A stretch of 64,000 nt of DNA from an uncultured Gammaproteobacteria bacterium (GCA_964411255.1 CAYPKD010000005.1:5547-69546); one strand, 5' to 3'. Counted from the first letter of the stretch, positions 31,944-52,118 are shown. Numbers and translations are program-made. Notes: generated by a model from the sequence alone, not told the origin.

Positions 31944-32191
31944 TAGCTTCTCCTTATGGCAGGTTTGTTATTAAGCAAGCGTCCTTGCAAAGCAGGGCTG
32001 TCCAGCAGAGATGACTGGATAGCAAAATACAGGTCCCAAAAGGGAAAATTGTAAATGTGCAGGCCTTCTTGACGTCTCAAGAAAAGGCAAAAATAAATGA
32101 AAAATCACTTGCTTTTGCCTTTTCTTGTTTGAGTAAAGTTAACATTTAATATTGCTAGTGTCAAGCATGTATATAAATAAAATAGCCTTTT

Positions 32192-32385
32192 AAAAAACAG
32201 GCCCGTTAGGCCTGATTTAATCTTTTTCAATTTCGGCTTGTGCCGACCTACTTTTTGCTGCCAAAAAGTAGGCAAAAAGCACTGGGGGGCTTCAAATGCG
32301 AAGCAACGATTAAGTTTGAGGATCGCCCCAAGGGCAATCAGCCCCCCAGACCCCCGATTCTATTGACGAATTATTTTTTACAAAA
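32192..32385. ncRNA. candidate structured small RNA (unclassified)
   Basis: GC-rich segment with four or more hairpins, including a 10-bp stem ctggggggct/agccccccag. It is bracketed by terminator-like hairpins at both ends (32198-32222 and 32386-32410); orientation unresolved. Confidence 0.25.
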
Positions 32386-32408
32386 GACCACCAGTTTCCT
32401 GGTGGCTT

Positions 32409-32744
32409 TTATTCTAATTCCTTTCTCAATTTTTTTATTTCTGCTTCAGTATCTTTTGATTTATCTTGTTTTTTTACATCTATTATTCTTTGAGTTAACA
32501 TTTGTTGTGATTTTGCCAGAGCTGCTTGACGATTTGTTTTTATTTGTTCATGCATTTTTTTAGCTTCTGCTACTTGTTTTTGAGCCAGTTCTTCAAGTTC
32601 TTGAGGAGTTTTTGTTTGCATTTCAATAATTAAGTTTAATTCATCTTCAGTCAGATCTTTAGCCATTGAAAGCAACTTGTCTTTTTTTGCTTTTGGCAAA
32701 TTTGATTTTTTTATTTGAGTAATTATTTTCTTTTTTTTATCCAT
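32409..32744 (-). CDS. hypothetical coiled-coil protein
   Basis: Lys/Glu-rich heptad-like sequence. Confidence 0.45.
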   Translation of the reverse strand: MDKKKKIITQIKKSNLPKAKKDKLLSMAKDLTEDELNLIIEMQTKTPQELEELAQKQVAEAKKMHEQIKTNRQAALAKSQQMLTQRIIDVKKQDKSKDTEAEIKKLRKELE

Positions 32745-32745
32745 A

Positions 32746-33111
32746 TTAAATTGCTTGGGCTATTCTCATAAGCTGACCAGTAATATAAATTGCTTTTGAC
32801 AATCTTTTATGCTCTCGAACCCAGTTGTTAAATTTAGCTCTGTTGGCATTGGCTTCATCTCTTATGTTCTCTTCGGCTAACTGGGATATTTCCAAAACGC
32901 GCTCATCGTCTTCATCTACACCCAGATCTTCAGCCAGTTGAGCAGGATCTCCTTCCCATATGTTACTCTCTTCAAATTTTTTTAATTCTTCTTCTGATAA
33001 TTCTTCAAGCTCGCCGCTTTCCAGCATTTCAAAAAAATTCTGCTCTTCTTCAGGAGTAGATATTTGTTCTGGAGCTTCAAGCTCAGGTTGTAATTGTTCT
33101 ATATCAACCAT
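32746..33111 (-). CDS. hypothetical acidic protein
   Basis: Highly acidic N-terminal half; likely operonic with the downstream gene (1-nt spacing). Confidence 0.45.
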   Translation of the reverse strand: MVDIEQLQPELEAPEQISTPEEEQNFFEMLESGELEELSEEELKKFEESNIWEGDPAQLAEDLGVDEDDERVLEISQLAEENIRDEANANRAKFNNWVREHKRLSKAIYITGQLMRIAQAI

Positions 33112-33353
33112 ACGATATTAGTATAACATATTACATTTTACAAACAAAAAACAGCCTGCCAAAGAGACTGTTTTTTGATATTATCATTGGGATTACTGAT
33201 TTGATATTACTCTAACATCACACTGTTGCCAAGAAAAGATAGTTGGAGAGAGGTTTAAAGAACATCTATCTCTTTTGGCAAGCAGTGTGATGCCAAAGTT
33301 TGTTTACAAACTCCAGAGGAATTAGGAGCAGATGAGTGCTCCTAAAGGAAAGA

Positions 33354-34199
33354 TTAGGAAAAGAGAGAATTGGCAGTTTCTGCCAGTTTGACAGGATCTA
33401 CGTTGGAAGGACTGGTAGCCGGAGCCTTTCTGGTACCGCGACTGAAAAGAAATCCTGAAGAATGGGCAAACCATTGATCCAGTTCACCCTGCTGTTCAAC
33501 TATTTCTCGAAGCTGGGGATGATCCATGCGCAAAGTCTGTGATCCCTCGCGGAAAATACCCAGACTATGGCCGTCTACGTAGACAATGGCTTTTACACCA
33601 CGCTCAAACAAAACATATGAGGTGGCGCAGTGTCGCATGTTTCTGAGAATAGCCACATTGTCTCCAGGCAAAATTTCAGCCTCATTAGCTTCAATCTTAG
33701 CCATTTGACGGGATCGGCCAGCTTTCAGCATACCATCAAAGATTTCTGACATGCATTCGATAACAGTATCGTCCCGGCCAGGAAAAATAGACTGGAAAGC
33801 ACGAAGTACTGAATTGATGCCGGTCAGCGAGAAGATTTGCTGCGCTTCATCATTGATTTCAGGCGCCAGGAATTTGACAGCAGAGCCATGAGCATCCTGG
33901 GCATCAATGAATGTAACCAGCGGAGCAAGAGCTTCCTGGTCATTTTTTGAAGCCAGTTTTGAAATGATAGTGGCAAAACAGGAATGTACTGTGCCATCAT
34001 CATCTTTTTTGCCTTTTACTCCTTTGCCGCCAGCTTCAATGTCAACGGCAACAGCTTTATCCTCATTGAGTCCAGTCCCGTCCCAGTTAGCTGGGCGGAA
34101 ACAAACTTCAGCATCCATGTATGCTTCAGCAAAAGTACGGATAGCCCATACAGATGCCACCGCATCAAGGTCCACGTTCATGTGGGTAAAAATTTTCAT
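33354..34199 (-). CDS. DHH-superfamily phosphoesterase-like protein (GC-rich)
   Basis: HMNVDLDAVAS (DHH motif I-like) and IDAQDAHGS (motif III-like). GC content is much higher than the genome background. Confidence 0.4.
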   Translation of the reverse strand: MKIFTHMNVDLDAVASVWAIRTFAEAYMDAEVCFRPANWDGTGLNEDKAVAVDIEAGGKGVKGKKDDDGTVHSCFATIISKLASKNDQEALAPLVTFIDAQDAHGSAVKFLAPEINDEAQQIFSLTGINSVLRAFQSIFPGRDDTVIECMSEIFDGMLKAGRSRQMAKIEANEAEILPGDNVAILRNMRHCATSYVLFERGVKAIVYVDGHSLGIFREGSQTLRMDHPQLREIVEQQGELDQWFAHSSGFLFSRGTRKAPATSPSNVDPVKLAETANSLFS

Positions 34200-34317
34200 T
34201 TTCGCCTCTCTTTGTTGTGAAAAATTTCCTCTGGAATTTGCAAATTTTTAATTAACACTCTTCGAAATTTATTAAAAGTTAATAAATTTTGGAGAGCGAA
34301 GGAATTTTGTAATTCCT

Positions 34318-34635
34318 TCAGATTTGAGGTAGCGGCCAAAGCTGACGAAGCTGTTTGTCAAAGAATTCGTAAGCTTCAAAATCAGCACCGCAAAGTGTGA
34401 GTTTTGCAATTACTGGTATGAGTTGATTGTGCTCTGCTTTATTGGTGATTACGACATATGAATGGTAAGCAGAGGGATTGAAGTCATTGATTATGACATA
34501 GTCCAGTTTATCTGGCGGGGTCATCCAGTGTGAATCAATGGTAATAACCTGATCAAACTGAAAGCCTTCTTGTCTGGCTAGATCAATGATTTCAGTTGTG
34601 ATTGAACCGAACCAGAACTGGATCAGTATTTTCAC
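34318..34635 (-). CDS. hypothetical protein (GC-rich island)
   Basis: RBS AAGGAG plus a GTG start at about 34635; the ORF-track extension to 34698 is less likely. Confidence 0.4.
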   Translation of the reverse strand: MKILIQFWFGSITTEIIDLARQEGFQFDQVITIDSHWMTPPDKLDYVIINDFNPSAYHSYVVITNKAEHNQLIPVIAKLTLCGADFEAYEFFDKQLRQLWPLPQI

Positions 34636-35126
34636 TGAAAGCTCCTTTTTAAAAAAATTTGAAAAAAAACACTCGAATCTAACAAGAGATCCAAGCATTT
34701 TTTCGTACGAAAGTCCGCTTAAGACTCTCTTTCAAAATTTCCAAATAAGTTTTAGAAACTTTGAGAGATCGGAGAGTGCAGTGCTCACTCTCCGATGTCC
34801 GTTGCTTTAACCCGTAGGAGGCAGCTTTAGGTGCCTATGCGTTTTAAGGATGCAAGCGTTAAAGATCTCGGCTTGTTCATCCTGTTACCCATCCCCACTA
34901 GAGGATGTATTGGGTGGTTAGCAGAATTTTATACAGGCGCCTCTGCCAGGGCGCAGATGTAAACACATTGATGACAGATTATTATCTCTTGCCACCAAAT
35001 TAATGTTGTGAAGAGCCTTGTTGCTCTTCTCTGAATTCTGAAAATAAATTTCAGAACTCGGAGAAGCTGAGGATGGTTTGACGCATCCTCAGATATTTCC
35101 TTTCTTAAAATTTGGAGGTGAATAAC

Positions 35127-35567
35127 CTAGGCCTCTTTGTTTTGGCTCTGAGCTTCAGCTTCTGCCTGGGCCTTGGCCTGCTTGAGTGCAGCCTTGGCTT
35201 TGGCTTCAGCTTCGGCCTGCTTGCGCTTTTCAGCGTCAAGTTTGGCCAGACCACCGAGGCCTGTGTTGGGCGCACCACCAGCGCGGCTGGAGCCCTGCCG
35301 TCGGCGCTTGATTTCCAAGCGCTTGAAGCGGGGATCACCATGCTGATGCTTTGCCTGGCGGCGGCGCTGGTTGCGGCGCTGGCGGCGCAGATTACGCTTG
35401 GCGCGAAGTTCATCACGCTCAACCTTGACCTGCGCACGTCGCTCAGCATTCTCAGCTTTGCGAACCAGCTCCTGCCATTTCTTCAGGCCACCATGACGGC
35501 CGCAGAAACCGCGGCCAGCCAGGACATCAGCCGTACACCCGTCATGCTTACACTTTTCCACCTTCAT
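35127..35567 (-). CDS. Arg/Lys-rich protein with N-terminal C2CH zinc-binding motif
   Basis: RBS GGGAGG; CKHDGC...CGRH motif then an R/K/A-rich low-complexity region. About 60% GC with all frames open; coding status less certain. Confidence 0.4.
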   Translation of the reverse strand: MKVEKCKHDGCTADVLAGRGFCGRHGGLKKWQELVRKAENAERRAQVKVERDELRAKRNLRRQRRNQRRRQAKHQHGDPRFKRLEIKRRRQGSSRAGGAPNTGLGGLAKLDAEKRKQAEAEAKAKAALKQAKAQAEAEAQSQNKEA

Positions 35568-36110
35568 GTGGGCCTCCCTATATAAAAAGATTAATAGACA
35601 TTTTTGTCAAAATTGCTGAAAGGACGATGTAGGTGAGATGCCAAAGAGATTTGAAGGGACTTAAATAGATTTATTTCCCTTATCTCAATATGGGCAAAAT
35701 ATGCTCAGCCAATCTAATCGCAAGCGAATAGATCAGCATGAACTTCTCTCTCCTCTACATCGTTCTGTTCAGAAATTAGACATATAAAAACAGACTGAGA
35801 GAACCATGTCTGTTTAAAATACAGCTTTATAATCTAGCTGACTCTCTCTCCATGAAATTTGTTAGATTTCAATTTTCGATTTTGATTTAGTATTATAGCA
35901 TATTTTTTTAAAAAAGTCAAGACGAGAGCATAATTTAAGTCGTTTTTTGTCTAAATTTACGGAAATTACAAATTTGCTAAACTGGTAAATTAATTAAAAT
36001 TTTAGTAAAAATATTACGAATAATTACGAATTAGCAAGGCTGTTATTGAAAAGCATATATTTAATTGGTAATATGATAGAGCCTGTTTTCATGCGGAAAA
36101 GGAGAAAACC

Positions 36111-36595: not shown

Positions 36596-38023
36596 TTAAA
36601 TAGCATTTTTACCTTTAATCACTGCCCATGGAGTTTTTAATAATATCCAAAAATCAAGTTTTAGCGACCAGTTTTCAATATAGAAAATATCCATTTTTGC
36701 TTCTTCATCAAATGGCAAATCGCTTCGACCACTGATTTGAGCAATACCAGTTATTCCAGGTTTTATATCTAAGGTTCGTAATTGCTCTGGCGTATATCTT
36801 TCAACTTCTCTTGGCTGGTGAGGCCGAGGGCCAACTATGCTCATATTTCCGATAAAGACATTGAAAAATTGAGGCAGCTCATCAATGCTGATTTTTCGGA
36901 TAAATCTGCCAACAGCAGTTACGCGGGGATCTTTTTTTATTTTATATAAAGCACCTCTGGACGCCCCTTGTTCTTTTATTAATTTTTTTTCAAGTTCCAA
37001 TGCTTGTTTACTTGATGGTGCATCTGGCCCTGTACTCATATCCCAATACATTGATCTGAATTTGTATACATTGAATTTTTTTCCATTTTGGCCAACTCTT
37101 TCATTCTTATATATAATTGGCCCTTTTGAATTAATTTTTATGGCAATAGCTGTAAATAGCATTATTGGTGAAGATAAGATTATAAAAATAATTGAACTAA
37201 ATAAATCAGAAAATCTTTTAATAATTTTTTTCCAGCCGTCCAGTGGTGTCTTTTTTATTTCAATTACTGGCAGACCAGCAATCATGTGCGTTTCAATGTT
37301 GGTAGCCCTGGCTTCAAAAGGACCGGCAACATATTTAAAAATAATATGATTATATTTGGCAAAATTGATCAATGAAATTGTATCTTTTCTTGAGATATTT
37401 GGATCAGTTTGAATGATTTCATCAATAAATGTTTTTTTATGAAGAGCTTGAATTTTCATTAATGTGTCTTGATTAAACTGTTCAAAATGTTTGAGAATTT
37501 TTAATCCTAATGAAGGTTGTTTTAAGATTGCATTTTTTACAGCATTAGTATTTGAATTTTTTCCAATAATTATAATTTTATGAGTTCCCCAGCCAGTTTT
37601 ATATAAACTATTTTGAACGATTCTAATTATCATTCTGCCAACAATTATGAAAAGGATGCTGAAAAGCCAGGCAAACAAAATAATAAATCTTGATTCAAAA
37701 AGTTCTCTGACAAAGAACATATATAGAATAATTGCAGTCATGCCAGTAGAGCAGGCTAATATAATCCTGGCCATTTCATCAGTGACTTTTGTTTTTTTAA
37801 ATTTATAAAGAGATGACCAAAAAAAGAAAATCAGCCATATTGCAGCCATTACAATTAGTACACCTAAATATTTATTAAATTCCAGATCAAATACAACCGG
37901 CCTTATTTCAGTAACTGATTCAATAAAACGCAGAGAATAAGCGGTAATACCAGCCAATATTAAAAGAAAGTAGTCAGTGACCAGTTTTATAAGTACAAAT
38001 ATTAATTCTGATTTTTTTATCAT
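36596..38023 (-). CDS. polyprenyl-phosphate sugar phosphotransferase (WbaP/bacterial sugar transferase family)
   Basis: N-terminal TM helices; C-terminal sugar-transferase block IVGPRPHQPREVERYTPEQLRTLDIKPGITG. Confidence 0.85.
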   Translation of the reverse strand: MIKKSELIFVLIKLVTDYFLLILAGITAYSLRFIESVTEIRPVVFDLEFNKYLGVLIVMAAIWLIFFFWSSLYKFKKTKVTDEMARIILACSTGMTAIILYMFFVRELFESRFIILFAWLFSILFIIVGRMIIRIVQNSLYKTGWGTHKIIIIGKNSNTNAVKNAILKQPSLGLKILKHFEQFNQDTLMKIQALHKKTFIDEIIQTDPNISRKDTISLINFAKYNHIIFKYVAGPFEARATNIETHMIAGLPVIEIKKTPLDGWKKIIKRFSDLFSSIIFIILSSPIMLFTAIAIKINSKGPIIYKNERVGQNGKKFNVYKFRSMYWDMSTGPDAPSSKQALELEKKLIKEQGASRGALYKIKKDPRVTAVGRFIRKISIDELPQFFNVFIGNMSIVGPRPHQPREVERYTPEQLRTLDIKPGITGIAQISGRSDLPFDEEAKMDIFYIENWSLKLDFWILLKTPWAVIKGKNAI

Positions 38024-38150
38024 AAATTTGTTAGGCTGGTAGATCGGTAGGTTAGTAGGTTGGTAGATTTAAAAAAAATTGGAAGAAGGACGCTACTAAT
38101 ATTATTGCAATTTTTTGTAAAAATTTCAATAATAACATCCACCTTCCAAT

Positions 38151-38760
38151 TGATCCAAACAGGTCTATAAGCCGAATTCTGTCCCACCAGAGGCGGGGAT
38201 GATCATCTATCTAGTCCCGAGATTACTCTCGGGATCAAGCGAGCTACCAAACTTGCTCTTGCACCAGATAAGGTTTACCACCACCTAATGTTACCATTAG
38301 GCAAGAGAAGTATAAATTAAATAGTCACGTGAACCATTTAACTTTTTTCCTTCTCACTTTTCACCTTTCACCACTGCTACGCAGTGGAATTTCTAAATCC
38401 TAATTTTTTAAACTCTGAACAATTTTCAAATTTTCGAAAGGTTTTAAACATTAGAACATTTGAATTTCGAATTTGTTTAGAATTTCGTATTTCGAATTTA
38501 GCGCTTCCATTGCGCAACAATGGCTAGTATAGTCTCTGTGGCACTGGCTGTCGTCTAGGTTTATTAATTATCCTAGAATCGCCTGGGAGTTACCCAGTAT
38601 CATACCGCAGATTACGCTGATTAGCCGATTACGCAGATTGCAGGACTTTTTTTTATCAGCGTAATCAGCGTAATCTACGGTCAGGTGTTCGGACTTTCCT
38701 CCGGCCTACGCTTTTCACTTTGTTCAAAGCTTCGGCTGGCGATCATCCAACCTATTTGGA
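38151..38760 (-). ncRNA. rnpB: RNase P RNA (bacterial type A-like) with large insertions
   Basis: On the minus strand: GGAGGAAAGUCCGAACACC (P4 5' strand), CUGGGUAACUCCCAGG (P8-like), CCAGUGCCACAGAGAC, GGUGAAAGGUGAAAAGUGAGAAGG (P13/14-like), CUAGAUAGAUGAUCAUCC...GACAGAAUUCGGCUUAUAGACC (P4 3' strand, P2). The 5' and 3' ends pair as P1. Confidence 0.8.
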
Positions 38761-38808
38761 TCATAACAATTATATCAAAAATATTGTAAATTGTCAATAG
38801 GTATGCAC

Positions 38809-38837
38809 TTGACAGATTTTCAAAAATAAGCTAAATT
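38809..38837 (+). promoter_or_regulatory. candidate promoter TTGACA-17-TAAATT
   Basis: Direct motif match upstream of ORF 38887. Confidence 0.4.
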
Positions 38838-38886
38838 AGATTATCCAATGCTCGCACTCAATTGGCTAAAATAAGGAGGAAACGCA

Positions 38887-39660
38887 ATGAGACGAGTAAG
38901 GCAATTGACATATTTTGTTGTAATTTCGTTTATTCTCATGTATGTCAATGGATGTTCTTTATATTCTGAAAATGATCGTTCTTTTTTAGATGATCAGAAT
39001 AGACAGTCTGCTCGAAGAACAGTTCGTTCAGATGATTCTATAGATCAAAATCCTAATCAGCTAAAGCGGGAAAAGATTATTCAAGTAGCTCAGGCAAAAC
39101 TTTCTTTGGAAGAATTTGCTCAGGCTGAACCTTTGAAAAGATATTGTGATATTACTGGCACCAGCTTTGAAGTAGAAAAGATGCCAGTTACTATTTCTCA
39201 TGCTGGAAGAGAAGTATATGTGGAAACTGAATTAAAGGATTCAACTCTTTTTAAAGAAAATGCAACAAAAGTGCTGGGCTGGTGGAAGCGAAATTACCGG
39301 GTAAGAAAAGTAGAAGATAAGGGTCTGCGCTTGGTCACCATGCTGAAAATTCCAAGAGCAGCCAAATATGATGATGTTGCCAAGGCAATATTTGAATTCT
39401 ATCAAAAGAATTTTCAAAATATTGTTATTTCAGTTATTTGTCGGGAAATGAATAACTGGGCAGTTGATGAATATCCAAATGATTTTTCTGTGGTGATTGA
39501 AAAAAAACAGGAAAATCAGACCCAAAAAGAAGACAAGGCTGCTGCGAAAAAGGCAGCAAGGGCTGCTGCGAGAAGGGCGGCAAGGGCTGCTGCGAGAAAG
39601 GCAGCAAAGGCTGATGCAAAAGAACCAGCCAAACCTCCTGCAAAAAAAGCAGATGAATAA
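38887..39660 (+). CDS. lipoprotein with C-terminal Ala/Lys/Arg repeat tail
   Basis: RBS AAGGAGGA, lipobox VNGCS, C-terminal KAAAKKAARAAARRAARAAARKAAKADAK. Confidence 0.5.
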   Translation: MRRVRQLTYFVVISFILMYVNGCSLYSENDRSFLDDQNRQSARRTVRSDDSIDQNPNQLKREKIIQVAQAKLSLEEFAQAEPLKRYCDITGTSFEVEKMPVTISHAGREVYVETELKDSTLFKENATKVLGWWKRNYRVRKVEDKGLRLVTMLKIPRAAKYDDVAKAIFEFYQKNFQNIVISVICREMNNWAVDEYPNDFSVVIEKKQENQTQKEDKAAAKKAARAAARRAARAAARKAAKADAKEPAKPPAKKADE

Positions 39661-39723: not shown

Positions 39724-41076
39724 TTAAACTCCGAGTTGCTTAAGTAAGGGCTTCATGGCAATCATTTGATCCAGTTTTTCACCAACGGTAACCATACCGA
39801 CTTTGGTTTGAAAGCATAATCTTTTCCATTCGTCTTCAATTCTATTTACATAATCCCGTGCATTTGTTGGCAGTTCGATAAATTCCCTACATTTGCCAGT
39901 TGGTTTGAACCAACCAGGAACAGTGAGATTTACTGGCTGGCATTCATACCATTTTTGAATATCAGCTGGCGGGAATTCTAAACTTTTTCCTTCATAATTC
40001 CAGTTATACGTGACTGGAATTTTTTCAAGACCTCCCAAGACATCCAGCTTAGTAAAAGCGACTAAGTCTGGTTGAGCCATTCTGAGCGCATGACGCAAAA
40101 GTACATGATCAAGAGGACCACATCGACGCGGTCTTCTAGTAGTTACACCAAATTCATCACCATTTTTTCTAACTTGCTTTCCGAAGAATTCCAAATCTTC
40201 ACCTGGAATTGGTCCGCTGCCCACTCTGGTTGTGTAAAGCTTGGCAATACCTAAGGTAAAAGCAATATCTTTTAATGACAGACCAGCGTGACCCAAAAGA
40301 CCGCCGGGTGTGGTTAAAGAAGAAGTGACAAATGGATAAGTTCCGACAATTCTATCCAGTAAAAGACCTTGGCCTGGTTCGATGATTCCTATTTCGCCGT
40401 TTTTCCTAATTTTCTCAAAAAGCTCAATAGTATCGCCAACATTATTTGAAAAACCATGTGCCATCTCCAGAATTAAATCAAGATCAAACTTTTCTTCAGG
40501 CAGATTGCAGCCTTTAAGGAAAGCATTGGCCAGTTTATAAGCCATTTCGATTTTTTGTTCAGCTCTTTTTCGACTATCAAGCAAATCACTGAAAGTCGGC
40601 CCGAACCGGAATGCTTGCATGGCATATGTTGGCCCAATGGCATTGGCTGTGGTACCAATGTTATCTTTGCCTTTTAATTCCTCAAGCGCTTTTTCAAGGG
40701 TTTTATATACTGGCAGAATGATTTGAGCCCGGCAGTCAATTACAGTTCGATTGACATCAACGTCTTGTTGGCTTAGAACATCCATTTCTAATTGTAATTT
40801 TTCAAGATCAATTACTGTGCCAGCACCAATGATAGCAGTGATGTCAGGATCAAAAACTGCCAGCGGCATATTATGACTTTTGCAAAAAATACCATTGTCG
40901 TCTCTATAGCTATGACCAGAATTTCCGCCGCCATTAGGCTTGATTGCCCACCTGATTTTTAGACCATTTTGTTTTAGGAATTTTGCCAGCCTAAGAGCAA
41001 TTGATCCCTTGGCATTATCTCCCCATAATAAATCAACTAGTTGTATAAATTTACCTGCCAGGTTATTTGGTGGCAT
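39724..41076 (-). CDS. purA: adenylosuccinate synthetase (divergent)
   Basis: LWGDNAKGS (P-loop-like), GGNSGHS, and TTRRPRRCGPLDHVLLRHA...TKLDVL blocks. The P-loop deviates from canonical GDEGKGK. Confidence 0.75.
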   Translation of the reverse strand: MPPNNLAGKFIQLVDLLWGDNAKGSIALRLAKFLKQNGLKIRWAIKPNGGGNSGHSYRDDNGIFCKSHNMPLAVFDPDITAIIGAGTVIDLEKLQLEMDVLSQQDVDVNRTVIDCRAQIILPVYKTLEKALEELKGKDNIGTTANAIGPTYAMQAFRFGPTFSDLLDSRKRAEQKIEMAYKLANAFLKGCNLPEEKFDLDLILEMAHGFSNNVGDTIELFEKIRKNGEIGIIEPGQGLLLDRIVGTYPFVTSSLTTPGGLLGHAGLSLKDIAFTLGIAKLYTTRVGSGPIPGEDLEFFGKQVRKNGDEFGVTTRRPRRCGPLDHVLLRHALRMAQPDLVAFTKLDVLGGLEKIPVTYNWNYEGKSLEFPPADIQKWYECQPVNLTVPGWFKPTGKCREFIELPTNARDYVNRIEDEWKRLCFQTKVGMVTVGEKLDQMIAMKPLLKQLGV

Positions 41077-42198: not shown

Positions 42199-42207
42199 AT
42201 ATTTTTA

Positions 42208-42244
42208 GATTGGTAGATCGGTAGATTTGTAGATTGGTAGTTAG
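42208..42244. repeat. GGTAGAT-unit repeat block (left inverted repeat of 4HB cassette)
   Basis: gattggtagatcggtagatttgtagattggtagttag; its reverse complement recurs at 42674-42710. Confidence 0.55.
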
Positions 42245-42246
42245 AA

Positions 42247-42647
42247 TTATTTATTATTTAATTCTTTAGTTTTTGAATTTGTCATTTTATTCAACATTCG
42301 CATGACTTCATTTAATAAATTATCAACTTTTAAAAAATTTAATTTTTTTCCAAATGGTAGACGATTGGCAATTTCTATTTGAGTTTCTAATTCTGCCCCG
42401 GAAGCATATGCTACTATTAAAAAGTGACGATATTCTTTTATTGTTAGTCGTTTTTTTCCTTCAGCGATATTCGAGGGGATAGATATAGCTGTTTTTCGTG
42501 TATGTTGAATTAATCCAAATGATTCAATTTTCGGATATTATTCTGTTAATTCATAGACCGCGACAACTAAATCCATTGCTTTTTGCCAAACAATTAATTT
42601 CCGGTAATCCCCAGGTTGATTAATTTCATTTTAAAATAATTTCCCAT
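42247..42647 (-). pseudogene. four-helix-bundle protein (Avd / 23S rRNA IVS protein, TIGR02436-like), disrupted
   Basis: The minus strand encodes MGNYFKMKLI..VWQKAMDLVVAVYELTE*YPKIESFGLIQHTRKTAISIPSNIAEGKKRLTIKEYRHFLIVAYASGAELETQIEIANRL.... A 26-nt duplication-type insertion (direct repeat attaatttc at 42594/42620) shifts the frame. There is an in-frame TAA at 42538-42540. Not in the ORF track. Confidence 0.6.
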
Positions 42648-48313: not shown

Positions 48314-48436
48314 TTTAAATTTGAGAATAGTTATTTAGAAATCAGTATTAGAAATAAGATAATAAAAATAGTTTTTAAATACTAATTTCAAATTTCCATT
48401 TTCCATTACCAATTTTGATTTTCTATAAACTAATTT

Positions 48437-49539
48437 CTATGAGAAAAAACATTGAGGGATCAGAAGCAATAGCTGAGGTGGTTAAATTAATACAACCAGA
48501 AGTGGTAGCCACTTTTCCAATTACACCTCAGACTCATATAATAGAACATCTGGCTAAATATAAAGCAGATGGTGAGGTTGGTTTTGAATATATAAAAACT
48601 GAAAGTGAGTTTGCAGCAGCCTCAGTTGTTTTGGGTGCCAGCGCGATGGGGGTACGGGTATACACCGCTTCCAGCTCACAAGGATTGCTTTTAATGGGCG
48701 AGGTTTTATATGACATTGCTGGCATGAGATTGCCCGTGGTTATAACTGCAGCTAATAGGGCGATTTCCGCGCCATTAAATATTTGGAATGACCATCAGGA
48801 TGTAATGCCTTTTCGTGATGCTGGCTGGATAATGCTTTTTGCTGAGACTAATCAGGAGGCGATGGATCTGCATCTTTTGGCTTTCAAGTTGGCTGAAAAA
48901 TTATCGCTCCCAGCAATGGTTTGCATGGATGGTTTTGTCTTAACCCACACTTATGAGCCGGTTGACATTCCAAAGTTAAGCGAAGTTAAAAAGTTTTTAC
49001 CTAAATACAGGCCAAAGAAAAATACATATTTAGATGTGATTAATCCGGTTAGCCTGGGTTGTTTTGCCACCCCAGCTGATTATCAGGAAATAAGACTGGA
49101 ATTACATGAGGATTTATTAAAATCAAAAAATCTATTCATTCAGGAAGCAAAGAAATTTAAAAAGATTTTTAAACGGAATTTAAATATTATTGATTATTAC
49201 GGCCCAAAAAATGCAAAAACTGTAATTGTCGCGATGGGAGCAGCTTTAGGCACCATTAAAGAAGCTGCAGATCAGTTAAATGAAAAAGGATCAAAGGTGG
49301 GAGTATTAAAAATATCAATGCTGCGGCCTTTTCCAAAAATGGAAATAAAACATTTATTAAAAGATAAAAAAAACGTGATTGTTCTGGATCGGGCAATATC
49401 ACTGGGTTCTGGTGGTATATTATATAATGAGGTTAGAAATGCTTTATGCAATACCAATGCCAAGGTTAGCGGAGCAGTAAACGGCTTGGGTGGAAGGGAT
49501 ATTACAATTGATTTTATTAAAAAACTTATTGTAGCGTGA
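48437..49539 (+). CDS. porA: POR alpha subunit
   Basis: EGSEAIAEVVKLIQPEVVATFPITPQT N-terminus; start at ATG 48437. Confidence 0.85.
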
Positions 49540-49552
49540 TAATTTTGAGAAT

Positions 49553-49631
49553 TGGAGGTTACGGAATTACGGAAGGTTACTGATATTACGGATATCCGTA
49601 GTATCCGTAATAATCAGTAAATCCGTAATCC
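49553..49631. promoter_or_regulatory. palindromic array of TTACGGA / TCCGTAA repeats (operator-like)
   Basis: ggttacggaattacggaaggttactgatattacggatatccgtagtatccgtaataatcagtaaatccgtaatcc: three direct TTACGGA on the left and three TCCGTAA on the right, around a perfect 14-bp palindrome tacggatatccgta. Confidence 0.55.
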
Positions 49632-49640
49632 CTAATAAAT

Positions 49641-52118
49641 ATGAAAAAAATAATATTACTTACAATTCTTCTGGCATTAATTTGCACGTCTTTTTTAGTT
49701 GCTGCCAAGGTTAGTGCGTTTGAGCCTTTGGAAGAATTAATTCCAAGAATGAAAATCCCGATCCCGCAGCTTGAACCATTTCAAAAGCCTACTTATGTGG
49801 AAGAAGGAGGCAAGGGCTATATTTTCATTCCATGGATAGCCCAATATGTAAGTGCAATGTATAAATATGCTTTGGCTATTGGATCAATCATTGCTGTGAT
49901 TGCAGTTATGGTAGGAGGAATTTTATATTTAACCTCTGGCGGTGCGCCTGGCAGAATAGATCAGGGTAAAAATATTATTATTGGTGCTATTACCGGACTT
50001 TTAATTATAATTTTTTCTTATATCTTTTTAAATACAATTAATCCTGAACTGGTGAATCTTAAGGCTATTAGAATTCAAGCTGTAAAACAAGAAGCATTAG
50101 TGGTTGGAAATAATTGTAAGGATTTGGGAGCTGGATTTATAGTCAGAACTCCAAGCGGAGAAAAAGAAGGAACAACAGGTAATGCCCAGTATTTTGCATG
50201 CGGCAGTTCATATCCAGTAAGGTCAGGGGCAGCAGATGTGATTGTTCCCGAAGGTCAGAATTGCGATGGGGCGTATTGCCAAAAGGGTGCTTGCGAGACT
50301 GTTGATGGTAAACCACAGTGTGTGAATGCTTTGTTTACAGGAGAAATTACAGGAACGATGTTGTCCGGAGGAAGATATATTGATGAAGAATTTGAGCTTT
50401 GGGGCATGCCGGGAAATGGTCTTCTCGCAGCATTTCCAGTTCCATCTAAAGGACGATATGTTATTCCTTTAACAGCTGAATTAGAAAACAAACTAAATCT
50501 TGTAGACAAAGTGTATTTTCATCTACAGATAAATACCACAGGTGCTTATCCTTATTGGGCCTATAAAATTGGAAAGGAAGGAGTTGTTGATGTGGATTTG
50601 ATAAAAGAAACGGTAAAAAGTTATTTTAAAACTACAATAGATAGTGAATTTTATGCAGTAAAAAGTTATAAGGATCCAGAAAAAGCAATATGGGGATTCC
50701 CATACTCTCTAGATCAGATGTCCCCACTCAATCCTAGTTATGGTAATACCCCTTGTGATCCATGTTTTGTGATGCCTAGGAACGCTGAATGGCGATTTGA
50801 ACAGAGATTGCCTTGGTGTCAATTTTGGGAACCGACTGATCTTTTAGTAGCAGCAAAAAGTGGATCTGGAACAGTTGTAAATTTTAATATTGATGATTTT
50901 CCAGAATATCCTCAGTGGCCTCCACCGGTTCTAGTAAAAGAACTTCTATTAGATAATATTTCTGGATTACCTACGCCTGAATTTTTAAAGGGTGTTAAAT
51001 ACGAAGATATAGATTGGAATAATTTGGCTACAATCAATCCAGATTTATATCCTTATATGACTGATCCTGCTGAATTTTGTGTGGCTTCGAGTCAGTTAAC
51101 ATCTGCCTCTCCATTTCCTGGGACTCCATGTACTAGTCCGTTTGAGACAGCATTTGTTGCAGCTGATGATGCGAATGCGCCAGATGATTTAAAGGGGAAA
51201 ACATTATATTGTCGGCCTGCTGGTTATCAAGTCGGTTCAGGCACAGCAGTAGCAAAGTTTGAATGGACATTGGAAGATGCTAGGAAAGGAGATACGTGTG
51301 ATAATTTAAGTGTTGCTCAGAGTTTTCCAGGACAATTTTCAGCTGGACAAACAGCAAAAAACGATGGACAGCCATTTGTTAATTGTGAATCTGGCGTTAG
51401 TTGCCAATGGGTTAGCGGTGATGTAGGAGAATGTATAAATGGTTTAACATATTGTTTTGGGTTTTGTGAAGATGATGAAGCAGTATTGTCTATGGGAATT
51501 GGAGATCCATGCAGAGATGGCACCTGCCTTCCATATAAAGGATCAATAGAATTAAAATGCGTTTTAAATGGAAATGCCAGGGAATGTTTATTAGGCACAT
51601 GGGGATCATTTTGCAATACTGATAACGACTGTAAAGACGGTTTTGAATGTATTAAGCATGACACTACAACTACTGATGAAGTTCAATTTTGTGCAAAAAA
51701 GAATGCAGGAAGATGGCAGGCATGTGGAGATAAAATTAGCGGTAGTGGTACGAATTGTTCTTCTGGATTGGATTGTGAGCAAGTAGAATACGGAGAAGAA
51801 GGTGATAGTGACGCACAGTGTGATACAGGCCATTGGTCTGGAGCAGATACTAATAATTTGAAATTTTGTCTTGAAAGTACTTATGATGATAATAATCATG
51901 GGATCTGCTCCTGTTCAAATAATAGTAATTGTGCCAATACTTATGGTTGGGATTCTGGTGCAAATTATTGTAATTTAGCAGGTTATGAATATTGTTCTCA
52001 AAAAGTTGAAGGCGCATGGTGTAAAGTAGAGGGAAAAACAACACCAGACAATTATTTTTGCCATGGTGTAGGAGGTGAGTATGGAGTTTTACATCAAAAG
52101 ATTTCAACTAGTCAATAA
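49641..52118 (+). CDS. large Cys-rich secreted/membrane-anchored protein inserted in the por operon
   Basis: Signal peptide, then two hydrophobic helices separated by a short Gly-rich loop, then a roughly 680-aa domain with dozens of Cys. No catalytic motifs recognised. Confidence 0.55.
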   Translation: MKKIILLTILLALICTSFLVAAKVSAFEPLEELIPRMKIPIPQLEPFQKPTYVEEGGKGYIFIPWIAQYVSAMYKYALAIGSIIAVIAVMVGGILYLTSGGAPGRIDQGKNIIIGAITGLLIIIFSYIFLNTINPELVNLKAIRIQAVKQEALVVGNNCKDLGAGFIVRTPSGEKEGTTGNAQYFACGSSYPVRSGAADVIVPEGQNCDGAYCQKGACETVDGKPQCVNALFTGEITGTMLSGGRYIDEEFELWGMPGNGLLAAFPVPSKGRYVIPLTAELENKLNLVDKVYFHLQINTTGAYPYWAYKIGKEGVVDVDLIKETVKSYFKTTIDSEFYAVKSYKDPEKAIWGFPYSLDQMSPLNPSYGNTPCDPCFVMPRNAEWRFEQRLPWCQFWEPTDLLVAAKSGSGTVVNFNIDDFPEYPQWPPPVLVKELLLDNISGLPTPEFLKGVKYEDIDWNNLATINPDLYPYMTDPAEFCVASSQLTSASPFPGTPCTSPFETAFVAADDANAPDDLKGKTLYCRPAGYQVGSGTAVAKFEWTLEDARKGDTCDNLSVAQSFPGQFSAGQTAKNDGQPFVNCESGVSCQWVSGDVGECINGLTYCFGFCEDDEAVLSMGIGDPCRDGTCLPYKGSIELKCVLNGNARECLLGTWGSFCNTDNDCKDGFECIKHDTTTTDEVQFCAKKNAGRWQACGDKISGSGTNCSSGLDCEQVEYGEEGDSDAQCDTGHWSGADTNNLKFCLESTYDDNNHGICSCSNNSNCANTYGWDSGANYCNLAGYEYCSQKVEGAWCKVEGKTTPDNYFCHGVGGEYGVLHQKISTSQ

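Follow-up and report, generated by a model that had tools for sequence, protein, structure and literature searches.

Two repeat-rich peripheral helices lengthen a bacterial RNase P RNA gene

Introduction

RNase P is a tRNA-trimming ribozyme, and the gene rnpB encodes its RNA subunit. Here we describe an rnpB on the minus strand of a 64,000-nucleotide (nt) stretch of DNA from an uncultured bacterium (GCA_964411255.1 CAYPKD010000005.1:5547-69546), hereafter the window, in which two peripheral helices are lengthened, one between P5 and P7 (J5/7) and the other at P12. In 1997 Vioque is said to have found short tandemly repeated repetitive (STRR) elements in the rnpB helix P12 of heterocyst-forming cyanobacteria. 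These repeats are reportedly dispensable in vitro and occur elsewhere in the genome, and they are said to have invaded independently, with relatives carrying unrelated repeats or none.

The elements P6, P16 and P17 separate type A from type B RNase P RNAs (PMC7191817); in type B, P5.1 in J5/7 replaces P6/P16/P17 (PMC2858038, PMC7191817). P12 is variable among RNase P RNAs and absent in at least one bacterium (PMC8172020). In the candidate phyla radiation (CPR), or Patescibacteria, RNase P RNAs have been described that carry "large extensions of helices" or are missing P13/14/16/17, and that are often missed by Rfam; loss of P16 and P17 is described as not unusual in this group (PMC8172020). 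Our search of the literature found no report linking Patescibacteria rnpB to repeat-built expansions.

Identity and core architecture of the RNA

The region at 38152-38758 on the minus strand matches the Rfam family RNaseP_bact_a (RF00010) with 139.6 bits (E 8.2e-43), above the curated gathering score of 100 bits and with the full model spanned (positions 1-367). This is the sole Rfam match in the window, which holds no second canonical rnpB. Extending P1 to its complete 12 base pairs (bp) places the gene from G38762 to C38152. Its full-length minimum free energy (MFE) is -226.8 kcal/mol (z = -12), and no open reading frame (ORF) of at least 60 amino acids (aa) overlaps it in the window ORF scan. 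The original prediction, made from the sequence alone, had recognised rnpB on this strand, and the Infernal/Rfam comparison that it proposed scores the region well as RNase P RNA. We conclude that 38152-38762 is almost certainly the bacterial RNase P RNA gene.

The core elements P1-P5, P7-P14, a P15 hairpin with GGU, P18 and the P4 pseudoknot strands are present, and the RF00010 alignment shows every universally conserved core nucleotide and helix to be intact. The conserved P4 strands, CR-I GGAAAGUCC and CR-V ACAGAAnnCGGCUUA, are aligned with a posterior probability marked by an asterisk. P13 and P14, in the specificity domain, are both aligned by Rfam and both formed in the MFE fold. The GGU in the P15 loop binds the tRNA 3' end. 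P6, P16 and P17 are absent: the RNA has a deletion of 34 model positions that lie between the P15 strands, and P15 closes as a hairpin, a deletion shared by the relatives whose Rfam alignments were shown. Because the P16/P17 positions and the P6 partner are deleted, the RNA is type-A-derived and not a complete type A, contrary to the initial description of all core type-A elements as present.

The gene also has transcription signals of its own. A sigma-70-type promoter matches the consensus at 12 of 12 positions, with TG preceding the -10 element, which stops 7 nt short of G38762, where P1 begins. This promoter is also seen 5' of rnpB in three related loci (L107, L109 and L013; L numbers denote related loci throughout). 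At the 3' end, a terminator-like hairpin is kept in L107, L109 and L110; a simple terminator scan detected nothing at this end, the long apical part of the hairpin having made the scan miss it. Within the same hairpin lies a promoter-like site (38101-38129, minus strand; TTGAAA, 17 nt, AATAAT with TG; 10 of 12 matches), ~80 nt upstream of the start of the downstream sugar-transferase gene, and this may be the sugar-transferase promoter.

The J5/7 helix

Between the 5' strands of P5 and P7, where J5/7 is 8 nt in the RF00010 model, the window RNA carries a long hairpin with 26 pairs, two of them G-U, and one bulge. Its folding energy of -40.8 kcal/mol (z = -8.4) was matched by none of 200 shuffled sequences. 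The motif GATTACGC occurs in four exact copies within the hairpin, two per arm, and in two further copies elsewhere, giving a window total of 6 against 0.73 expected. Tandem Repeats Finder (TRF) reports a period of 9, with 3.9 copies in one arm and 2.3 copies at 100% match in the other. The near-perfect repeat hairpin of ~75 nt that had been noticed at the outset is therefore real (76 nt, 26 pairs, GATTACGC in both arms), with a 9-mer as its unit by TRF; its placement right after the P4 5' strand was mistaken, as it comes after the P5 5' strand (CACC) and before P7 (GAUA).

Pairing in this helix is maintained between relatives. Covariation was assessed over the basal 19 rungs of the helix in the window, L008, L109 and L004. 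All 19 pairs are standard in every cell (three distinct sequences) and 6 of the 19 are changed on both sides, a level reached by just 2-3 of 500 shuffles. When the alignment registers are slid by 1-3 columns, 23-42% of cells are paired and double changes fall to zero. TRF also detects period-9 units in L109 (CGCTGATTG, 2.9 copies) and L004 (TCGCAGACT, 2.1 copies); across the orthologs the period of 9 persists, with unit sequences and copy numbers that vary. There is no conservation of the apical loops among the four RNAs. The sense strand of the rod folds at -40.1 kcal/mol, as against -30.6 kcal/mol for the antisense. The aligned sequences thus point to a conserved RNA helix with its pairing maintained and its tip free to vary.

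The helix stands at the P5.1 position of type B RNAs, but it has no P15.1 partner and its loop is not conserved. Because P15.1/15.2 are lacking, there is no L5.1-L15.1 contact in the window RNA. Rfam clan competition reports only the type-A model, not RF00011.

The P12 expansion

P12 is the second lengthened helix. Its 155-nt segment folds as a single rod (-50.6 kcal/mol, z = -7.0; antisense -38.7 kcal/mol) that recurs unchanged in the full-length MFE structure, with a G+C-richer base, many bulges, G-U pairs and AU-rich stretches. TRF detects a period of 7 with 6.6 copies at 38458-38499, in the 5' arm only. The original prediction had described an AT-rich repeat stretch between P12 and P13. 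The AT-rich character stands (23% G+C), but the stretch is the distal part of P12 itself, flanked by the 5' and 3' basal strands of that helix. The repeat unit proposed with it, AATTTCGAA, is rejected: it is not enriched window-wide (33 hits at up to one mismatch against ~60 expected, 7 of the 33 clustering in the AT-rich stretch), and the TRF unit is a heptamer.

The window P12 is homologous to that of L107 and L110. When the 57 MFE pairs of the window P12 are compared with L107, 45 are unchanged, 5 differ on one side (between G-U and Watson-Crick), 2 differ on both sides and 4 no longer pair. Identity to L107 is 88% and 85% for the two arms, against 48% for the third codon positions in the neighbouring gene, and the apical thirds of the two RNAs are unrelated. 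As in J5/7, the comparison suggests that pairing, and here arm sequence as well, is maintained with the tip free to vary. Taken over all clade expansions, the sense strand folds at -780 versus -726 kcal/mol for the antisense, with 50 versus 40 G-U pairs, a modest bias; the strand asymmetry is suggestive for the window's two rods, not decisive.

A G+C-richer P12 extension of ~100 nt (GUCGCGAAGCGACUAUCCUGAG...UCGAAGG...CCUUCGA...) is common to the rnpB of the distant L004, L005, L019 and L069, pointing to an old module or else to P12 cassettes that were exchanged laterally.

Three independent assemblies (L001-L003) agree at 100% identity in both expansion segments, which are thus not an assembly artefact. 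An intron or other RNA family within the inserts was considered and rejected: when 38000-38900 was searched with Rfam at E <= 1, nothing came up beyond chance matches to microRNA-like and small-RNA families, well below their gathering scores. With blastn, the two inserts matched orthologous positions and, with weak motif-level similarity, other AT-rich hairpins; neither yielded a second copy in the window or, orthologous positions aside, in 110 related loci.

Table 1. Coordinates of rnpB, its transcription signals and its structural elements in the window
Feature	Position	Strand	Basis
rnpB promoter: TTGACA, 17-nt spacer, TGaTATAAT (extended -10)	38769..38797	minus	consensus match
rnpB, RNase P RNA, type-A-derived, 611 nt	38152..38762	minus	RF00010 139.6 bits, MFE fold
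P4 5' strand / CR-I (AGGAAAGUCCG)	38690..38700	minus	invariant RF00010 model positions
P5 5' strand (CACC)	38684-38687	minus	RF00010 alignment and direct reading
J5/7 expansion hairpin (P5.1 position), 9-nt GAUUACGCU units, 76 nt	38605..38680	minus	fold, TRF, ortholog pairing
P7 5' strand (GAUA)	38598-38601	minus	RF00010 alignment and direct reading
P12, whole helix, 155 nt (18 nt in minimal relatives)	38370..38524	minus	Rfam insert placement, fold
AT-rich distal part of P12; 5' arm an AAAUUCG heptamer array	38386..38501	minus	23% G+C, TRF
P13, extended; sequence almost invariant in the clade	38305..38355	minus	ortholog comparison
P14 hairpin (GGUAAC loop)	38283..38302	minus	RF00010 alignment
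P15 simple hairpin, 18 nt, loop AAGUUUGGUA with GGU motif	38241..38258	minus	RF00010 alignment
P18 hairpin (GUAA loop)	38215..38234	minus	RF00010 alignment
P4 3' strand / CR-V (ACAGAAUUCGGCUUAU)	38167..38182	minus	RF00010 alignment
Terminator-like long hairpin, then U tract	38069..38151	minus	dG -27 kcal/mol, z = -5.6

Orthologous rnpB genes

The gene order PurA, rnpB, sugar transferase is conserved among orthologous loci, and rnpB and the sugar transferase also stay together in dozens of more distant loci. Our ortholog set comprises seven complete rnpB genes, the window's included (Table 2), and two partial ones (L013 and L110); those other than the window's come from eight related lineages. 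The minimal rnpB of relatives is an ortholog and not a second copy, because it is found in the same syntenic position, with the same sugar-transferase gene directly downstream. All share a core of 267 nt that is 87-98% identical to the window's, and the complete genes range from 404 to 765 nt. The length differences are confined to P3, J5/7, P9, P12, a position next to P14 and the P2'/P4' hairpin; P8, P13, P14, P15 and P18 are constant in length. For example, J5/7 reads AUAAAAAG in L101 and P12 reads GUCCGCCUCUGGCGGAC in L008, the P2'/P4' hairpin carries ~50-nt extensions in L107 and L005, and L107 has an extra hairpin next to P14. Of the partial genes, L013 has a J5/7 of 6 nt and a long P3, and L110 has a P12 3' arm of the window type. 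The window RNA can be described as an L101-type core with two expansions, ~74 nt in J5/7 and ~138 nt in P12, which agrees with the early estimate of an RNA that exceeds the usual length by ~200 nt and has two discrete expansions (404 nt in the minimal ortholog L101 against 611 nt).

Table 2. Lengths (nt) of the complete orthologous rnpB genes and of their variable segments
Locus	Total	P1-P3	J5/7	P9	P12
L101	404	61	8	25	18
L008	473	63	80	25	18
L109	484	39	106	25	25
L004	603	84	105	25	97
window	611	61	82	25	156
L107	714	126	21	25	173
L005	765	128	9	189	103

The distribution of the expansions is patchy. In a neighbour-joining tree of the sugar transferase, with the topology ((window, L008), (L101, L004), (L110, L107)), L109, L005, the sister of the window, L008, has the J5/7 hairpin and a short P12; L101, the sister of L004, has neither expansion; and the window-type P12 is found in L107 and L110. 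Because neither expansion maps cleanly onto this tree, both were gained, lost or swapped repeatedly. The expansions had been proposed as lineage markers or insertion scars; they do vary between lineages, but their patchiness on the tree of the neighbouring gene makes them poor as clean markers.

A capping hairpin, CCGCC-UCU-GGCGG, recurs in the short P12 of L008 and L101, at 38184-38196 in the window, and in P3 and P12 of L109. Found in this way in short P12, the P2'/P4' hairpin and P3, it may be a generic cap that heals deleted expansions.

A wider survey of CPR rnpB

A DNA pattern for the P5'-P15-hairpin region matched 92 metagenome stretches with the same P15 hairpin, from which we took 50 distinct rnpB with both P4 strands. 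Among these, the P4-to-P15 distance has a median of ~220 nt; it is 439 nt in the window and longest in L052 (574 nt) and L087 (667 nt). J5/7 holds a hairpin in 41 (median J5/7 26 nt) and is a plain 6-8 nt in the other 9. It exceeds 70 nt in 5 of the 50, and the window, at 81 nt, lies at the long end. Because 41 of 50 carry a J5/7 hairpin, RNAs of this group that have lost P6/P16/P17 normally have a hairpin at the P5.1 position, a pattern relevant to the possible evolution of type B from type A.

The longest genes show how far such growth can go. The rnpB of L087 is ~1025 nt (L087:9394-10418) and scores 47.2 bits against RF00010; that of L107 is 714 nt (L107:~2130-2843) and scores 95.1 bits. 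Both fall below the gathering score. The J5/7 insert of L087 is made of GAAATTC heptamers, a motif-level resemblance to the window P12 insert at a different site, and L052 (718 nt) has a P12 insert of ~350 nt bounded by ACCCCGCCC...GGGCGGGGU. Expansions of this kind push relatives' rnpB below the gathering score, which helps to explain why CPR rnpB goes undetected at default thresholds and affects completeness checks that rely on rnpB. With its constant core, the ortholog series from 404 to 765 nt, together with the distant gene of ~1 kb, forms a natural insertion-tolerance map of bacterial RNase P RNA, with six tolerant sites: P3, J5/7, P9, P12, next to P14, and the P2'/P4' hairpin.

Origin and fate of the expansions

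The identity and anatomy of the gene, the conservation of its helices and the patchy distribution among orthologs are observed, and any account of the expansions has to start from them. We favour, as rather more probable than its negation, the reading of a CPR rnpB with repeat-amplified peripheral rods that are retained and non-catalytic. In this account, rnpB would be a single-copy, independently transcribed gene with a type-A-derived core and two lengthened peripheral helices, the J5/7 helix having been extended to at least 26 bp by tandem 9-mers and P12 having grown from ~18 nt to 155 nt, largely via tandem AT-rich heptamers. The rods may have been seeded by local amplification or insertion, at insertion-tolerant hairpin tips, of short-tandem-repeat hairpins common in the non-coding DNA of the lineage. 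We infer that they would be transcribed and most likely retained in the mature RNA as solvent-exposed protruding rods, and that they would lie outside the catalytic mechanism and be dispensable, behaving as bacterial "expansion segments". The rnpB itself is ordinary and essential, and these findings do not alter the function of RNase P.

Repeat hairpins of comparable build occur elsewhere. The strongest inverted repeat in the window, at 49551-49636 on the plus strand, is an intergenic hairpin of tandem 8-9-nt TTACGGA-type units (dG about -41 kcal/mol); flanked by a POR_N/PFOR_II gene (48415-49539) on one side and an 825-aa ORF on the other, it is built like the rnpB J5/7 hairpin. AT-rich heptamer hairpins resembling the P12 insert are intergenic in L041, L103 and L030. 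On the simplest reading of these sequences, the origin would resemble local repeat amplification, not transposition of a defined element.

Several considerations weigh against the reading that we favour. A near-perfect duplex of 26 bp is a textbook RNase III substrate, and covariation in an inverted repeat could in principle be kept at the DNA level. The P12 arm identity of 85-88% exceeds that of a purely neutral passenger, so the rods may have a role, although the identity may instead reflect recent exchange of rnpB segments. The proposed origin from a repeat family also rests on similar, not identical, elements, with no second copy in the 64-kb window.

The possible role is made explicit by an alternative that we consider unlikely, in which the rods are functional modules, J5/7 being a P5.1-like brace that replaces P6/P16/P17 and P12 a docking platform or folding aid for a lineage-specific partner. 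The prevalence of the J5/7 hairpin in 41 of 50 related rnpB lacking P16/P17, the covariation of the helix, the conservation of the P12 arms far above synonymous sites and the precedent of type B, in which P5.1 replaces P6/P16/P17 (PMC2858038, PMC7191817), are all consistent with such modules. Yet relatives do without them while their cores are otherwise near-identical: J5/7 is a plain 6-9 nt in L101, L013 and L005, and P12 is 18-25 nt in L008, L101 and L109. Moreover, the apical loops differ between the window, L008, L109 and L004, there is no P15.1 to receive an L5.1 contact, and length beyond ~8-10 bp is unneeded in most relatives.

Retention of the rods, as our favoured reading would have it, is challenged by the proposal that the expansions are intervening sequences (IVSs) that RNase III removes after transcription, so that the RNase P RNA would consist of fragments joined through its core helices; we think this quite improbable. 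The geometry is suitable, since each expansion forms a long, regular duplex (26 bp and ~57 bp) at the tip of a peripheral hairpin and takes the place of a short capping hairpin seen in relatives, as IVSs do in rRNA; relatives that reach ~1 kb (L087) would also seem cumbersome as ribozymes. However, bulges, G-U pairs and AU-rich stretches are numerous in the P12 rod, excision by RNase III does not require the arm-sequence conservation that we observe, and no RNase III gene was seen among the 20 window ORFs scanned against family libraries. Fragmented bacterial RNase P RNA was not reported in the literature found, a weak negative from a narrow query. If the excision account were true, these Patescibacteria would depend on an RNase P RNA split into several pieces, which would be the first fragmented RNase P ribozyme in bacteria, and the inserts, the larger ones of the ~1-kb relatives included, would be tandem-repeat hairpin cassettes colonising the loops of essential structured RNAs.

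We find it more doubtful still that the expansions are mobile-element insertions, palindromic repeats resembling miniature inverted-repeat transposable elements (MITEs) that would be selfish DNA scars with no meaning at the RNA level. Such an origin would account for the patchy presence and absence among close relatives, for AT-rich heptamer hairpins of similar type in unrelated places (between genes in L041, L103 and L030, and within J5/7 in the L087 rnpB) and for the further tandem-repeat hairpin at 49551-49636. But no near-identical copy, terminal inverted repeat with target-site duplication, or transposase-related feature was found in the window, and the similarity between sites is at the level of motif and period (E 1e-5 to 1e-3 under lenient scoring, in low-complexity sequence). 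The 9-mer copy number differs between orthologs, which fits slippage better than transposition, and the compensatory changes in the helix and the better folding of the sense strand also speak against DNA-level scars. Finally, an assembly chimera or decaying pseudogene, which the unusual length and low-complexity inserts might bring to mind, can be dismissed with near certainty, given expansion segments identical in three independent assemblies, wholly intact universally conserved core nucleotides and helices, a conserved promoter and terminator, and homologous expansions in other lineages.

Host and gene neighbourhood

The window is ordinary chromosome with a G+C content of ~34%, and its genes include rpoC, ftsH, infB, leuS, uvrA, CCA-adding enzyme, trpS, purA, RNase J and pyruvate:ferredoxin oxidoreductase (PFOR) subunits. 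Homologs of the sugar transferase encoded just downstream of rnpB have the source names Patescibacteria group, Falkowbacteria, Kuenenbacteria or Parcubacteria, and by these protein matches the host is evidently an uncultured Patescibacteria/CPR bacterium.

Upstream of rnpB, PurA (39724-41076, minus strand) has just seven close relatives in 5.8 billion proteins. Beyond these its best matches are at 35-39% identity and, among source-named ones, overwhelmingly from Actinobacteria; a single-protein search among GTDB species representatives returned no relatives. This CPR lineage may have gained purA by lateral transfer. In divergent orientation upstream of rnpB, ORF 38887-39660 encodes a lineage-specific 257-aa protein with no family match; its C-terminus is an Ala/Lys/Arg-rich tail (AAKKAARAAARRAARAAARKAAKA...) encoded by a 24-nt tandem repeat of 5.4 copies (39524-39653, plus strand).

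C/A-rich, unstructured octamer repeats (CTACCNAT-like; TRF units GTAGGTTA and TAGATTGG) occur at 38028-38068 and 42199-42252, in minus-strand 5' untranslated regions. They stand directly upstream of the start codons of the sugar transferase and trpS, respectively, at the expected place of the Shine-Dalgarno sequence, and in L107 another repeat (AUUUGUAA) takes this position.

Elsewhere in the window, the 825-aa ORF at 49641-52118 (plus strand) has no Pfam or NCBIfam match and sits in the PFOR cluster, between the POR_N and TPP_enzyme_C genes; in L004 and L005, long ORFs with no recorded family also adjoin the POR_N gene. The region ~32000-36000 has a G+C content of 0.39-0.43 against a background of 0.31-0.36. 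Two ORFs scanned there gave no family match, a third (35127-35567) encodes a very basic protein of 146 aa, and the whole may be an island of foreign origin. Near the locus in relatives lie genes of family PF05635 (23S_rRNA_IVP), whose four-helix-bundle proteins were first discovered within intervening sequences of 23S rRNA (L005:565-933, L012:116-493 and L109:6406-6762), with no link to rnpB established.

Comparison with known systems

With the type A model (RF00010), the window RNA shares P1-P5, P7-P14, P15 with GGU, P18 and CR-I/CR-V. It differs from that model in lacking P6/P16/P17, in having a helix in J5/7 and an extended P13, in a P12 of ~8 times the minimal length, and in its total of 611 nt as against a 367-position consensus model. 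With type B it has in common a hairpin between P5 and P7, a hairpin-loop P15 and the lack of P6/P16/P17. Unlike type B, it keeps P13/P14 and is without P10.1 or P15.1/15.2, P15 being followed directly by P18, and its J5/7 helix is at least 3 times longer than P5.1 and built of tandem repeats.

The likeness to the cyanobacterial STRR sequences lies in a P12 lengthened by period-7 repeats (6.6 copies), beside J5/7 arms of period 9, in relatives with unrelated repeats or none, and in similar repeat hairpins elsewhere (49551-49636 and other CPR contigs). The phylum and the repeat sequences differ, a second site, J5/7, is expanded, and relatives expand P3, P9 and other hairpins. A repeat-lengthened P12 is already known from cyanobacteria.

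Like the intervening sequences of 23S rRNA and the expansion segments of eukaryotic rRNA, the window's rods sit on peripheral hairpin tips and vary between close relatives. IVSs of 23S rRNA are excised by RNase III and expansion segments are retained. Under the reading that we favour, the rnpB expansions would be a bacterial analogue of rRNA expansion segments.

Together with the STRR sequences, the nearest counterparts are the diverged CPR RNAs of Lui, Nielsen and Arkin (2021), which belong to the same superphylum and show helix extensions and P16/P17 loss (PMC8172020). Default Rfam failure is common to both sets, with L107 and L087 below the gathering score here, whereas the window RNA keeps the UGG/GGU motif that is absent from two thirds of theirs. 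Helix extensions and P13/14/16/17 loss in CPR bacteria were thus already known; the J5/7 helix, the tandem-repeat make-up and the pattern of gain and loss among orthologs are not described there (PMC8172020). What this locus and its relatives add is a helix of tandem 9-mers at the P5.1 position, an ortholog series expanded at six sites, patchy gain and loss, and rnpB sizes of up to ~1 kb.

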